Positions 11,260 through 14,967 of a DNA stretch of 64,000 nt are shown in pieces. Source of the DNA: Escherichia phage HP3.2; the sequence record OP978391.1; one strand, 5' to 3'. The translations under genes and the position numbers were made by a program. Position 1 is the stretch's first letter. Every line of letters starts with the position of its first letter. Under the pieces are notes generated by a model. The model had not been told where the DNA came from. It did no database searches and worked only from the letters and a program-made list of their open reading frames with translations.

Positions 11260-11475
11260 TTAAGCCTTTTTATCAAGAACAGAATTCAGCTTGTTAGTAA
11301 TTTTATCCAGACGCTCATTGAACTCGCTAGAAGATAAACTCTTTTCTGGAGAAATCAAACTAATCACGAAAAATATAGCAATAAAAGGAATAAGGAAAAT
11401 AGCTCCAACTGCCATAAACAGAAAGAACGTTACAGTTGTAAGAAAATCAGCTAAACCTTTACGAAATTTATACAT
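11260..11475 (-). CDS. Small membrane protein
   Basis: 71-aa ORF with hydrophobic core FFLFMAVGAIFLIPFIAIFFVISLI. Confidence 0.45.
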   Translation of the reverse strand: MYKFRKGLADFLTTVTFFLFMAVGAIFLIPFIAIFFVISLISPEKSLSSSEFNERLDKITNKLNSVLDKKA

Positions 11476-11590
11476 ATTTTACCCTTAATTGATTAACCAA
11501 GCATTGATAAGCACTAAACTATACTGCGAATAAAATTCTGGACCAAAATGAAAAATCATATCATTTATAGTATCCATAATGTAATTCAAT

Positions 11591-12061
11591 TTAATCATGT
11601 GTCCACACCCCATCGGTATTTGACCAAAGTCGCTGATTATCTGATCCTCGCCACAGCTTTTTGGTCGGAAGATTTTTCTCATACTTCCCATCAATAATAA
11701 CATCAACATATTTAAGCATTTCTAGTTGTTTAATATCTTCAAACTTATATCCTGTCCACAACCAAATGTCTTTCTCAGGAAATCTTGCTTTAACCCAAGA
11801 AACTAAATTTGAAATCTCTTCTCGGTTCTGTGGATAAAGTGGGTCACCACCGGTTAAGGTAAGGCCTTGGATATACGATTTGCTTAAATGGGACGCAAGT
11901 TCTTTAACGGTATTCATAGTGAATAACTGTCCGTTACGAGCATTCCAAGTACTACGATTATAACAACCTTCGCATTTATGCAAACATCCAGTGACGAAGA
12001 GAACGACCCTACATCCAGGGCCGTTAACGAAATCGCATGGATAAATTCTATCATAATTCAT
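11591..12061 (-). CDS. nrdG: Anaerobic ribonucleotide reductase activating protein NrdG
   Basis: Start at MNYDRIYPCDFVNGPGCRVVLFVTGCLHKCEGCYN (156 aa); radical-SAM cysteine cluster; matches T4 NrdG from memory. Confidence 0.9.
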   Translation of the reverse strand: MNYDRIYPCDFVNGPGCRVVLFVTGCLHKCEGCYNRSTWNARNGQLFTMNTVKELASHLSKSYIQGLTLTGGDPLYPQNREEISNLVSWVKARFPEKDIWLWTGYKFEDIKQLEMLKYVDVIIDGKYEKNLPTKKLWRGSDNQRLWSNTDGVWTHD

Positions 12062-12683
12062 CTTTATATTTCCAAGTATATCCCTTATGAATAGATTGAA
12101 TTCCTTTGCAACATTTATAAACAGCAGAATGAAAAAATCCTGCATTTCTTATTTCAGTTGCTCCAGTTAGTTCTATTGTATTTCCGTCTGGTGAATAGCC
12201 AATAACCGTTTTGGTGTTAAAGCGATTTCTAGAACTATTTTTGATATGCTCTTTATGACTAGTAGACAAAGTTCTTCCTGTTAGCCCATCAGATATCCTT
12301 TTTCCAAAATCATCAGGAAGAGTTACTTTAGACCTAGCTATGCTCATTAGCTTCTTAGTTTTATCGCTTCTTTTTGCGCCACGCTGATTTTCAAATTTCT
12401 TAGCTTTTGCATACGCGTATTGTGAAGAAGTAACTTTTCTATGCTTACTATTACTCATTATCCAATATGCATCATACATCTTTCCACCATATATTTTAGC
12501 CAATAAATGGTGAGCAGTATAGTGGGCCTTATAAGTTAAAAATACTAAGTTGTCTAAATCATCTGAACCACCCATACTTCTTGGAATTATATGATGAAGT
12601 TCATACCCGGCTTTAGTTTGACGGGGCTTAGATGGGTGTTCAGCAGAATTAACTAGATTTGAATAGATTCTGTCATAATTCAT
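12051..12683 (-). mobile_element. Free-standing HNH homing endonuclease gene inserted between nrdD and nrdG
   Basis: 210-aa ORF with HNH motif ELHHIIPRSMGGSDDLDNLVFLTYKAHYTAHH; its first 7 codons (MNYDRIY) duplicate the nrdG start; ATGA overlap with the nrdD stop; its stop lies inside nrdG codons 3-4. Confidence 0.8.
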
Positions 12684-14497
12684 TGGTGTTTAACCCTATG
12701 CATGATTTCTTTATTTTTACCGAGATTAAATCCGCGTTCGTTCGGGTTTCCCAAATAACCGCATGTTCTTCTTATTGTGTTCATCTTTTTAGGATCAGTT
12801 TCTCCACAAATAGAACAAACAAACCCGTTTTCAGTAGGAGTCATTTCATGGGTACTTCCACACGTAAAACATTTATCTACTGGCATATTAACACCAAAAT
12901 AATCTAAATGTTGTGCAGCATAATCCCATACAGCCTCAAGACCTTTTAAGTTATTTTTCATATCAGGAAGTTCAACATAAGAAATGTGACCACCTGTTGC
13001 AATGAAATGATACGGGGCTTCGCGAGAAATCTTTTCAAACGGAGTAATATTTTCTTCTACTGAAACATGGAAACTGTTAGTGTACCAGCCTTTATCAGTA
13101 ACATCCTTTACACTTCCATATTTTTCTGTATCAAGTTTACAGAAGCGATAGCAAAGGTTTTCAGCAGGAGTAGAATACAAGCTAAAAGCAAACCCAGTTC
13201 TTTCAGTCCACTGTTTAAGACGAGCATTCATTTTAGTTAAAATTTCCTGTCCAATATCACGACCGACAAGAATATTCAATTCGTGAATACCAATGTATCC
13301 TAAAGACACTGAACTTCTACCATTTTTAAATAACTCAATTATATCGTCATCAGGTTTAAGACGAACCCCGAATGCACCTTCTTGGTAAAGAATAGGAGCA
13401 ACAGTCGCTTTAACTCCTTTTAAGGAACTAATTCTACACATCAAAGCTTCAAAACATAAATCCATTCGCTCATTGAATAATTTAACAAATTTCTGTTCAT
13501 TGAACTGTGTTCCAATATAAGAATCCAACGCAATACGAGGAAGATTCAGTGTTACAACACCAAGATTATTACGTCCATCAAGAATTTCATTACCAGTCGA
13601 ATCTTTCCATACGCTCAAGAAACTACGGCAACCCATTGGAGAAACAGGAACAGATGAACCAGTGATAGCTTTATTGTTCTTAGCTGAAATAATATCAGGA
13701 TACATCCTTTTGCTTGCACACTCTAGAGCAAGCTGCTTAATATCATAGTTCGGATCGTCTTTATAAAGATTAACACCTTCTTCAACAAACATAACAAGCT
13801 TAGGGAAAATAGGAGTTATCCCATCACGACCAAGACCTTTAATACGATTTTTCAGAATTGCTTTCTGAATCATTCGTTCAGTCCAGTCAGTTCCCGTACC
13901 AAATGTAATTGTTACAAAAGGTGTTTGTCCGTTTGAACTAAAGAGAGTATTTACTTCATATTCATAAGCTTGGAATGCATCGTATACGTCTTTTTCTGTT
14001 TTAGATTGAGCATAATTCAACGCATCAGCGATTTGCCATTTTTCTGCATCCTCAATATGTTTTGCATATGTGCGTTTAACATAAGGAGAAAGTACTTTAT
14101 CTACATTCGCAAAAGTCGTTCCGCCATATTGATGGGAAGCAACCTGTGCAGTAATTTGTGCCATAATTGCAGTAGCAACACCGATTGATTTAGGAGTTTC
14201 AATCTGCGCATTACCAAGCTTAAATCCGTTCTCAAGCATTCCTTTTAAATCTACTAAACAACAATTAGTAAATGGAAGAGCAGGGGAATAATCAATATCA
14301 TGGAAATGAATAATTCCGCTTTCATGCGCTTTCATAATAAAAGACGGGACCATATTTTTGGCAATGTGTTTAGACACAATACCAGCCATAAGGTCCCGTT
14401 GAGTTGGAAAAACACGAGAATCTTTATTAGCATTCTCGTTCAAAAGGTCTTTATTAGTTTTATGAATCAATCCTTCAATTTCTTTTTCAATTGTCAT
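12680..14497 (-). CDS. nrdD: Anaerobic ribonucleoside-triphosphate reductase NrdD, uninterrupted
   Basis: Continuous 605-aa ORF MTIEKEIEGLIHKTNKDLL... with C-terminal glycyl-radical region and CxxC pairs. Confidence 0.9.
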   Translation of the reverse strand: MTIEKEIEGLIHKTNKDLLNENANKDSRVFPTQRDLMAGIVSKHIAKNMVPSFIMKAHESGIIHFHDIDYSPALPFTNCCLVDLKGMLENGFKLGNAQIETPKSIGVATAIMAQITAQVASHQYGGTTFANVDKVLSPYVKRTYAKHIEDAEKWQIADALNYAQSKTEKDVYDAFQAYEYEVNTLFSSNGQTPFVTITFGTGTDWTERMIQKAILKNRIKGLGRDGITPIFPKLVMFVEEGVNLYKDDPNYDIKQLALECASKRMYPDIISAKNNKAITGSSVPVSPMGCRSFLSVWKDSTGNEILDGRNNLGVVTLNLPRIALDSYIGTQFNEQKFVKLFNERMDLCFEALMCRISSLKGVKATVAPILYQEGAFGVRLKPDDDIIELFKNGRSSVSLGYIGIHELNILVGRDIGQEILTKMNARLKQWTERTGFAFSLYSTPAENLCYRFCKLDTEKYGSVKDVTDKGWYTNSFHVSVEENITPFEKISREAPYHFIATGGHISYVELPDMKNNLKGLEAVWDYAAQHLDYFGVNMPVDKCFTCGSTHEMTPTENGFVCSICGETDPKKMNTIRRTCGYLGNPNERGFNLGKNKEIMHRVKHQ

Positions 14498-14967
14498 TTT
14501 AAACTCTTTCTAAGCTGCTTCTTAAATGAAGCTATTAACTGTGTTTTAGTGTCAGATTCATTATATTCAAATCCTCTTTGAAGCATCTCAGCCATCATTT
14601 CCTCTTTTCCTAAACGAGAAAATTCCTTTGATTTATCTCCAATAAAGTTAGGGTGAATATTATTTTGGGTGTAATCGGATTTTAAATAAGTAAGTAAATT
14701 TTCTAACCATTCAAGATAATCAACACCTTGTCCCTTTAAGCCAGAACGATTAAATTTATGCTTCATTTGACCTTCTGCGGCATTGCAGAGATTACAAAGC
14801 AATCCACGTACCTTTCCTGCTTTTGGTCCATTTAATTCATGATCATGGTCAAGGTGATTAGCTTGAACATCAGGATTTAGTTCTCGTTGGCAAATTAAGC
14901 ATTTACCGTTTTGTGCATTATAAAATTTCTGTTTTTCTTCTTTGTATAATTTGCCAGTCAATAACAT
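14494..14967 (-). CDS. 49: Endonuclease VII (Holliday junction resolvase)
   Basis: 157-aa ORF MLLTGKLYKEEKQKFYNAQNGKCLICQRELNP...; matches T4 gp49 from memory. Confidence 0.9.
   Translation of the reverse strand: MLLTGKLYKEEKQKFYNAQNGKCLICQRELNPDVQANHLDHDHELNGPKAGKVRGLLCNLCNAAEGQMKHKFNRSGLKGQGVDYLEWLENLLTYLKSDYTQNNIHPNFIGDKSKEFSRLGKEEMMAEMLQRGFEYNESDTKTQLIASFKKQLRKSLK

Follow-up and report, generated by a model that had tools for sequence, protein, structure and literature searches.

The anaerobic ribonucleotide reductase genes nrdD and nrdG of Escherichia phage HP3.2 (OP978391.1) are separated by an ORF of 210 aa for an HNH endonuclease, whose first seven codons spell MNYDRIY, as do those of nrdG. 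What is this gene, and how did it come to share a start with the gene behind it? A sequence-only reading had proposed that a free-standing homing endonuclease gene inserted at the junction and copied the initiation region of the downstream gene. We compared the window, meaning the whole 64,000-nt stretch analyzed, with related phage genomes. The ORF is an HP3-borne copy of T4 mobC, a free-standing gene for an HNH homing endonuclease that is set into the very 5' end of nrdG, and it probably moves by the homing mechanism proposed below.

A known gene at the nrdD/nrdG junction

All genes concerned (nrdD, mobC, nrdG and gene 49) lie on the minus strand, with the following layout:

14494-14967, minus strand: gene 49, endonuclease VII (ORF map)
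12680-14497, minus strand: nrdD, anaerobic ribonucleotide reductase large subunit, 605 aa, uninterrupted, without the I-TevII intron (Pfam NRDD, 1.3e-171)
12680-12683, minus strand: ATGA, the nrdD stop codon overlapping the mobC start codon, suggestive of translational coupling
12663-12683, minus strand: upstream repeat copy ATGAATTATGACAGAATCTAT, codons 1-7 of mobC (MNYDRIY), at the native nrdG start position
12051-12683, minus strand: mobC, free-standing HNH homing endonuclease gene, 210 aa, T4 mobC orthologue (ORF map, T4 alignment, Pfam HNH, phrog_655 at 3.9e-43)
12510-12602, minus strand: HNH catalytic motif, residues 28-58 (ELHHIIPRSMGGSDDLDNLVFLTYKAHYTAH; Pfam HNH at residues 28-50, invariant residues, structure alignments)
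12063-12221, minus strand: putative C-terminal DNA-binding module, residues ~155-207, I-HmuI NUMOD-like, ending GYTWKY (weak matches)
12051-12053, minus strand: mobC stop TGA, within nrdG codons 3-4 (TAT GAT)
12041-12061, minus strand: downstream repeat copy ATGAATTATGATAGAATTTAT, the true nrdG start, codons 1-7, cassette-borne
11591-12061, minus strand: nrdG, anaerobic ribonucleotide reductase activase, 156 aa (Pfam Fer4_12 at 2e-50 and Radical_SAM; annotated nrdG in T4, RB51 and HP3)
11762-12061, minus strand: mobC-linked nrdG 5' allele, nrdG nt 1-300, read as an old co-conversion tract (30-nt identity profiles, allele distribution)

The ORF map and Pfam confirmed the 210-aa HNH ORF at the junction (it contains ELHHIIPRSMGGSDDLDNLVFLTYKAHYTAHH), the overlap of its ATG with the nrdD stop and the position of its own stop, all as first read. 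The stop lies 8 nt past the nrdG ATG, and mobC and nrdG overlap by 11 nt. The repeat of 21 nt at the two starts was also present and encodes MNYDRIY in both copies, with an identity of 19/21 and not the 18/21 originally counted; the 2 mismatches are synonymous third bases. When up to 3 mismatches are allowed, the window has 2 matches where shuffled sequence would give 0.01, and the repeat is beyond chance there. The TATGA at this point ends any ORF that enters nrdG in the frame of mobC, and the same stop place is used by a second HNH gene in Ozark and Mexia, described below, and by nrdD of RB69-like phages. Scans of 11400-13200 gave 6 promoter-like sites against 7.7 expected, nothing above chance, and 1 terminator-like site against 0.9 expected, no usable signal; the promoter scan of this interval did not confirm the mobC-embedded promoters mentioned in a 2010 review.

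Escherichia phage HP3 matches the window at 100% identity, and phage T4 matches the region at 97.5%. Aligned with T4 MobC (NP_049689.1), the ORF is identical at 209/210 aa and 632/633 nt, the single substitution being S142 in HP3 for N142 in T4. It is annotated as mobC or as a homing endonuclease in both T4 and HP3 (the T4 label is "homing endonuclease, H-N-H family"). By these alignments the ORF is T4 mobC (formerly ORF 55.10), a known gene in its known place between nrdD and nrdG. The 4-nt overlap with the nrdD stop as ATGA, the 11-nt overlap with nrdG and the 21-nt repeat all recur unchanged in reference T4. Because T4 carries identical junctions and repeat, mobC is not a new or recent insertion in HP3, as had been supposed. 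T4 and HP3 differ just upstream, where T4 nrdD is in 2 pieces around the I-TevII intron and HP3 nrdD is a single ORF without it. From the T4 and HP3 annotation and the ORF map, mobC lies outside any intron or intein, and nrdD and nrdG are uninterrupted in the window. The assignment to a free-standing HNH homing endonuclease gene is supported by the T4 annotation, the HNH motif and the polymorphism of the site described below. MobC activity is listed as "ND" and its target as "unknown" in the 2010 review (PMC2988022). Since mobC has been annotated in T4 for decades, the element as such changes no picture.

The HNH call and its catalytic residues were borne out. Pfam HNH PF01844 scored 26.9 bits against a cut-off of 21.4, and E28, H30, H31, P34, N45, H54 and H58 do not vary among the 13-14 family members aligned. 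A PDB sequence search aligned the motif with the HNH domains of solved structures, generic HNH domains only. The AlphaFold model has a mean pLDDT of 73.9, rising to 77-94 over the N-terminal 100 residues; as candidate elements of a beta-beta-alpha metal finger it places strands at 27-31 and 46-50 followed by a helix at 51-65 (pLDDT 87-94), and residues 3-12 form a confidently predicted helix of the HNH nuclease domain (pLDDT ~92). Foldseek matches to the model were HNH proteins, all at E >1e-3, the best being I-HmuI (1u3e) at E 3e-3. Matches to the putative C-terminal module were weak (I-HmuI residues 118-171 at E 0.34 by PDB sequence; PF22083 at E 0.043, below cut-off), in a region modeled at a pLDDT of only 53-73. 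A word-indexed protein search returned 12 distant homologues, T4 MobC not among them; the comparison with T4 MobC was drawn from GenBank phage records.

A contested site and a cassette that moves

The site is polymorphic. Among 837 matching phage records, 31, T4 included, carry mobC, and in RB51 and most of the records nrdD abuts nrdG through an ATGA overlap. The nrdG ATG of RB51, where the site is empty, occupies exactly the overlap with the nrdD stop that the mobC ATG holds in HP3. In a spread sample of the 837 records we saw four states: the empty 868-nt span (the great majority), the 622-nt mobC insert, a second HNH gene (an 829-nt insert in KK4, and the same insert in Ozark) and a GIY-YIG gene (an 823-nt insert in RB3, ECO4, EC121 and KIT06). 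The junction compared across T-even genomes gave RB51-type phages that lack the insert, with nrdD abutting nrdG, and the several endonuclease genes found there among the sampled phages mark the junction as a hotspot. According to Sandegren et al. 2005, as cited in PMC2988022, SegH takes the place of mobC in some phages related to T4, and the RB3-type GIY-YIG gene, annotated segD in its record, is probably SegH. This SegH-type gene occupies the same junction as mobC, but it is a GIY-YIG gene (phrog_314) rather than an HNH gene, has no fusion to nrdG codons, is accompanied by a recoded nrdD 3' end, and overlaps the nrdG ATG with its stop as ATGA. When IMG/VR viral contigs were searched with an NrdG alignment, 30 loci came back, 0 of them with an endonuclease gene at the nrdG start, and these loci served to compare nrdG 5' alleles. 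In Slopekvirus-like contigs, where nrdD and nrdG lie farther apart, the space is taken up by unrelated small genes that do not encode endonucleases. The nrdG starts beside these endonuclease genes are recurrently mis-annotated in the records.

The second HNH gene (Ozark YP_010072644, KK4, Mexia, SmallBear_ER8 and KP01) resembles mobC in belonging to phrog_655, in its site, in its in-frame fusion to nrdG, in the replacement nrdG start that follows and in stopping at the same TATGA; its C-terminal GYNWKYINEL resembles GYTWKYKDEL of MobC. It differs in its ~24% aa identity to MobC, its length of 279 aa, its 13 nrdG codons against 7, and its linkage to the PCC variant of the nrdG start. The fusion follows 13 codons of the resident nrdG type in each genus (PCDFVN or PSDFVN; MNYDRFYPCDFVN in Ozark, MNFDRIYPSDFVN in Mexia), and behind the gene lies a replacement nrdG start that comes with it, MNYDRIYPCCFVNGPG. 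From these alignments the nrdG origin of its N-terminus is unambiguous, which supports the same reading for the shorter fusion of MobC. The Tequatrovirus and Jiaodavirus copies of this gene are 84.5% identical, indicating an older split.

The nrdG gene beside mobC is a mosaic. In 30-nt profiles, nrdG nt ~121-300 of HP3 and T4 are ~90% Jiaodavirus-like and only ~55% identical to the RB51-type Tequatrovirus allele, and from nt 301 the gene is 100% RB51-like. A search with nrdG nt 100-300 matched 188 records; among the matches listed, those at 98% identity or above were mobC carriers, and Klebsiella Jiaodavirus phages matched at 90-96%. Apart from two truncated T4 variants, no mobC-free Tequatrovirus with the T4-type nrdG 5' allele was seen among the matches listed. 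We interpret this linkage of allele and gene as the pattern expected from co-conversion during homing, and the foreign 5' allele linked to mobC points to a donor whose nrdG was Jiaodavirus-like as the source of mobC in the Tequatrovirus pool. On the nrdD side the comparison was uninformative for a co-conversion tract, all Tequatrovirus nrdD genes being 90-100% identical. Synonymous differences are clustered in the imported nrdG start, at nt 24, 33, 36, 39, 51 and 63.

Three of the 31 carriers are Klebsiella Jiaodavirus phages (Boboto, Wolf_ER13 and Shark_ER15), and mobC is at least 99.1% identical across all 31. Gene 49 and nrdD of these three are only ~73% identical to those of HP3, and directly upstream of their mobC lies a 74-aa ORF, not nrdD. 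At that position the empty-site Jiaodavirus relative LilPanda has an nrdG starting ATGAATTTCGACAGAATCTAC (MNFDRIYPSDF), and the upstream repeat copy of Boboto, Wolf_ER13 and Shark_ER15 reads ATGAATTTC..., the resident Jiaodavirus nrdG start. Their mobC begins ATGAATTTCGACAGAATCTAT, or MNFDRIY, with its first nine nucleotides those of the resident nrdG start. In Wolf_ER13, nt 8-9 of mobC are the only resident-type differences in the start, giving MNF; from mobC nt 10 to nrdG nt 113 (726 nt) the sequence is 100% identical to T4, after which it is of Jiaodavirus type again. The downstream repeat copy of Wolf_ER13 and Boboto is 100% T4-type, the rest of the genome being Jiaodavirus-type. By this comparison the upstream copy in the Jiaodavirus carriers is resident and the downstream copy imported. 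The ends of the Wolf_ER13 tract therefore put the left crossover inside the 21-nt repeat, between nt 9 and nt 21, and the right one ~110 nt into nrdG. These alignments show that the cassette moved recently between phage genera. Among themselves the three carriers share 98-99% identity, and the transfer could be a single rare recombination event. A 2012 paper stated that convincing evidence for cross-genus transfer of free-standing endonuclease genes was lacking (PMC3468402); contrary to that statement, mobC is such a case.

Movement of the cassette could also be had from an inactive or domesticated mobC, a passenger spread by general recombination or mobilized in trans by SegH, by the second HNH enzyme or by I-TevII in nrdD. 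The "ND" entry for MobC activity in the 2010 review (PMC2988022) agrees with this, trans homing has a precedent in the mobilization of the defunct I-TevIII by T4 MobE (PMC2790892), two further endonuclease genes compete for this site, and in Shark_ER15 mobC is accompanied by a patch of the nrdG allele that goes with the second HNH gene. We nevertheless consider it unlikely that mobC is such a passenger, given its intact catalytic residues, a full-length ORF that hardly varies among the 31 carriers, and an imported tract in Wolf_ER13 that is short and centered tightly on mobC. I-TevII, moreover, is not required for the maintenance of mobC, because HP3 keeps mobC without the I-TevII-bearing nrdD intron.

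Origin of the shared start codons

Mob genes at other loci indicate how much of the mobC start needs a source in nrdG. At T4 loci other than nrdG, MobB starts MNYLNIY, MobD MNYTKVY and MobE MNYQKIY. Across unrelated loci, the Mob-family genes (T4 mobB, mobD and mobE and metagenomic homologues) start ATGAATTAT nnn AAn AT(C/A)TAT, that is MNYxxIY. The metagenomic homologues of MobC start MNYxKIY; two of their loci, neither at nrdG, lie one between lysozyme and gp15-like genes and one among small ORFs. The T4 mobE start (ATGAATTATCAAAAAATCTAT) is identical to the nrdG start at 17/21 positions. NrdG in many T4-like genera independently starts M-N-(Y/F)-D-R-(I/F)-Y, and codons 1-7 of MobC fit both the nrdG start and the Mob consensus. 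Mob proteins and NrdG, which are unrelated, happen to share a start, and the confident N-terminal helix of the model plausibly explains why the family conserves these residues.

Asp-Arg at positions 4-5 is a different matter. Among the aligned members it occurs only in the two nrdG-site endonucleases, and nrdG of other T4-like lineages has GACAGAATCTAT unchanged at its 5' end. Only codons 4-5 of mobC (GACAGA) need an nrdG origin, which these comparisons make probable, and we infer that a Mob-type gene recombined with nrdG through the chance similarity of their starts. The proposal that the downstream initiation region had been copied thus holds for codons 4-5, which are nrdG-like, and fails for most of the start, which is native to Mob genes and which mobE already matches at 17/21. 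The direction of copying that it implied is reversed, since in the Jiaodavirus carriers the upstream copy is resident (first 9 nt, MNF) and the downstream copy was imported with the cassette.

Pure coincidence would require that the MobC start is wholly family-native and that a clean insertion between nrdD and nrdG left the ORF with no nrdG-derived sequence. For Mob genes away from nrdG, MNYxxIY and ATGAATTAT...ATCTAT are indeed the native start, the modeled fold includes the N-terminal helix with confidence, and an insertion exactly at the nrdG ATG would yield an identical sequence, because both genes start ATGAATTAT. We hold this to be very improbable all the same: it does not account for Asp-Arg being confined, among aligned members, to the two nrdG-site enzymes, for the identity of GACAGAATCTAT with nrdG 5' sequence of other T4-like lineages, for the switch of the start to the resident MNF in the Jiaodavirus carriers, or for the unambiguous fusion of the second HNH gene to 13 codons of nrdG.

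There is equally little to be said for a recent insertion in the HP3 genome that duplicated the downstream initiation region like a target-site duplication, which would fit the significant 19/21 direct repeat flanking a 622-nt insert relative to empty-site phages and the match of GACAGA to nrdG alleles of other T4-like phages and not to the Mob consensus, but which is largely refuted by the identity of gene, junctions and repeat in reference T4 and 30 other records, by the 17/21 positions already common to mobE at another locus, and by the upstream, not downstream, copy following the resident sequence in the Jiaodavirus phages. Homing by double-strand-break repair, besides, is not known to generate target-site duplications. 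We also rejected a target-site duplication of the transposon kind, as the sole gene in the insert is the HNH endonuclease and the repeat is imperfect; the positions shared with the paralogue mobE and the different origins of the two copies in the Jiaodavirus carriers further rule it out.

A proposed route of homing and its parallels

We propose that MobC makes a cut or nick near the 5' end of nrdG alleles that lack an endonuclease gene, and that repair from a co-infecting genome with mobC copies the cassette. The right-hand crossover would fall inside nrdG, producing co-conversion tracts of ~110 to 300 nt. The left-hand crossover could fall inside the 21-nt nrdG-like start, and this start would therefore give the cassette a portable left homology arm in genomes with a different upstream gene. 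First arrival at nrdG would probably have come by recombination through the chance 17/21 similarity of the 5' ends of a Mob gene and nrdG. Downstream of mobC lies a slightly diverged second copy of the nrdG start, and because it follows the endonuclease gene, nrdG stays intact. The clustered synonymous differences in the imported nrdG start might protect against self-cleavage, and recombination between the two repeat copies would precisely restore the empty site. Translational coupling probably links expression along the series nrdD, mobC, nrdG, as the ATGA and the 11-nt overlap suggest.

A bolder version goes further, and we offer it tentatively, as a reading that these genome comparisons leave somewhat short of probable. 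It holds that the nrdG fragment of 7 codons in MobC and 13 in the second HNH gene has a function within the mobile element, as its portable left homology arm; that MobC is active today and crossed very recently from Tequatrovirus to Klebsiella Jiaodavirus; and that the chance match of the Mob and nrdG N-termini allowed the first ectopic invasion. If true, the element would lie wholly within nrdG-homologous DNA, like an intron or intein without splicing, and could home into any phage with a conserved nrdG, whatever the upstream gene. Apart from this bolder version, the comparisons illustrate a route for intron-free invasion of a coding sequence, which is to share the first codons of the host gene and carry a spare copy of them. 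They also provide natural-history evidence for mobC mobility and narrow its likely target to the first ~110 nt of nrdG. In the part of the literature that we checked, the shared start codons, the crossover within the repeat, the mosaic nrdG and the cross-genus transfer appear modestly new.

Among characterized enzymes, T4 MobE is a free-standing HNH endonuclease of the same Mob family, encoded between nrdA and nrdB, with the MNYQKIY start and an HHIIPR...N...H motif; its start codon overlaps the stop of the upstream nrd gene, as that of mobC does. MobE differs from MobC in its locus and target (nrdB) and in its length of 141 aa without the C-terminal module. No duplicated downstream start was seen at mobE, whose start matches nrdB.1 at 14/30 and nrdB at 9/30. 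The activity of MobE has been demonstrated (PMC2790892), whereas that of MobC is predicted. I-HmuI (PDB 1U3E), an intron-encoded HNH homing endonuclease, is the best structural match, a weak one with 28% identity over 82 columns. The two enzymes would share a plan of an HNH nuclease and a C-terminal NUMOD-like DNA-binding module, which is putative in MobC, where the model has low confidence; I-HmuI, unlike MobC, is intron-encoded, and it acts as a nicking enzyme. In Aeromonas phage Aeh1, according to the account of Friedrich et al. 2007 cited in PMC3045599, insertion of mobE splits nrdA into two genes. There too, by that account, a Mob-type gene invaded the coding region of a ribonucleotide reductase gene with no intron or intein involved. 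The outcomes differ: the Aeh1 host gene stays split and its fragments assemble as proteins, whereas at the mobC locus the host gene is kept whole through its duplicated first 7 codons.

Allele structure of nrdG

The nrdG of HP3 and T4 (window 11591-12061) is a recombinant. Nucleotides ~121-300 are ~90% like the nrdG of Klebsiella Jiaodavirus phages and only ~55% like the allele of RB51-type Tequatroviruses (comparison loci L002 and L013), whereas from nt 301 onward the gene matches the RB51 type at 100%. In the examined Tequatrovirus records, this foreign segment was accompanied by mobC, the HNH homing endonuclease gene between nrdD and nrdG, in every case seen. In the mobC carrier Shark_ER15 (L012 3094-3160), a short patch of nrdG (nt ~18-36) has been converted to PCC, the allele elsewhere linked to a second HNH gene and a SegH-type gene. 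This patch hints at rival endonucleases that may act on nrdG codons ~6-12.

Other endonuclease genes at the junction

Two further endonuclease genes were found between nrdD and nrdG, the HNH gene at the same site as mobC:

Ozark (L003) 1052-1891, second HNH endonuclease gene, 279 aa
Mexia (L014) 1074-1910, second HNH endonuclease gene, 279 aa
RB3 (L045) 594-1424, GIY-YIG endonuclease gene, annotated 'segD'

The second HNH gene is fused in frame downstream of 13 resident nrdG codons, and the nrdG start borne on its cassette codes for PCC, not PCD or PSD. The Ozark and Mexia copies, from two genera, are 84.5% identical. The RB3 gene is probably SegH rather than the 'segD' of its annotation. Its annotated start appears to lie too far downstream, since the GIY-YIG motif (YYIIYKITN...YIG) is found upstream of it; the true start is likely an ATG overlapping the recoded 3' end of nrdD.

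Annotation of nrdG and of the HP3 record

The annotation of all three phages begins nrdG at an internal codon (LHKCEG...), giving a shortened protein of 130 aa. It leaves out the true start, MNYDRIY, over which the endonuclease gene extends:

Ozark (L003) 592-984, truncated nrdG
RB3 (L045) 1499-1891, truncated nrdG
Mexia (L014) 1978-2370, truncated nrdG

The HP3 RefSeq record (NC_041919, L004) is filed under 'Rosemountvirus', yet is a T4-like Tequatrovirus by sequence. Around nrdG, its product names look one gene out of place: glutaredoxin stands at the 55.8 homologue, hypothetical at the nrdH homologue and head completion protein at a 37-aa ORF.

Upstream side of mobC

Jiaodavirus phages have a conserved 74-78-aa ORF between nrdD and nrdG (L010 2283-2507; L013 869-1102), which Tequatroviruses lack; in the mobC-carrying Jiaodavirus phages, the 3' end of this ORF and the start of mobC overlap. 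For T4, a 2010 review (PMC2988022) has mobC overlapping the ORF upstream of it by 24 bp, whereas in the current RefSeq annotation and the sequence the overlap is 4 nt, ATGA (L001 1680-1683). The nrdD gene is uninterrupted in HP3 (window 12680-14497), whereas in T4 it is interrupted by a group I intron encoding I-TevII. HP3 carries mobC without the nrdD intron that T4 has; inheritance of mobC and of the intron is therefore independent.
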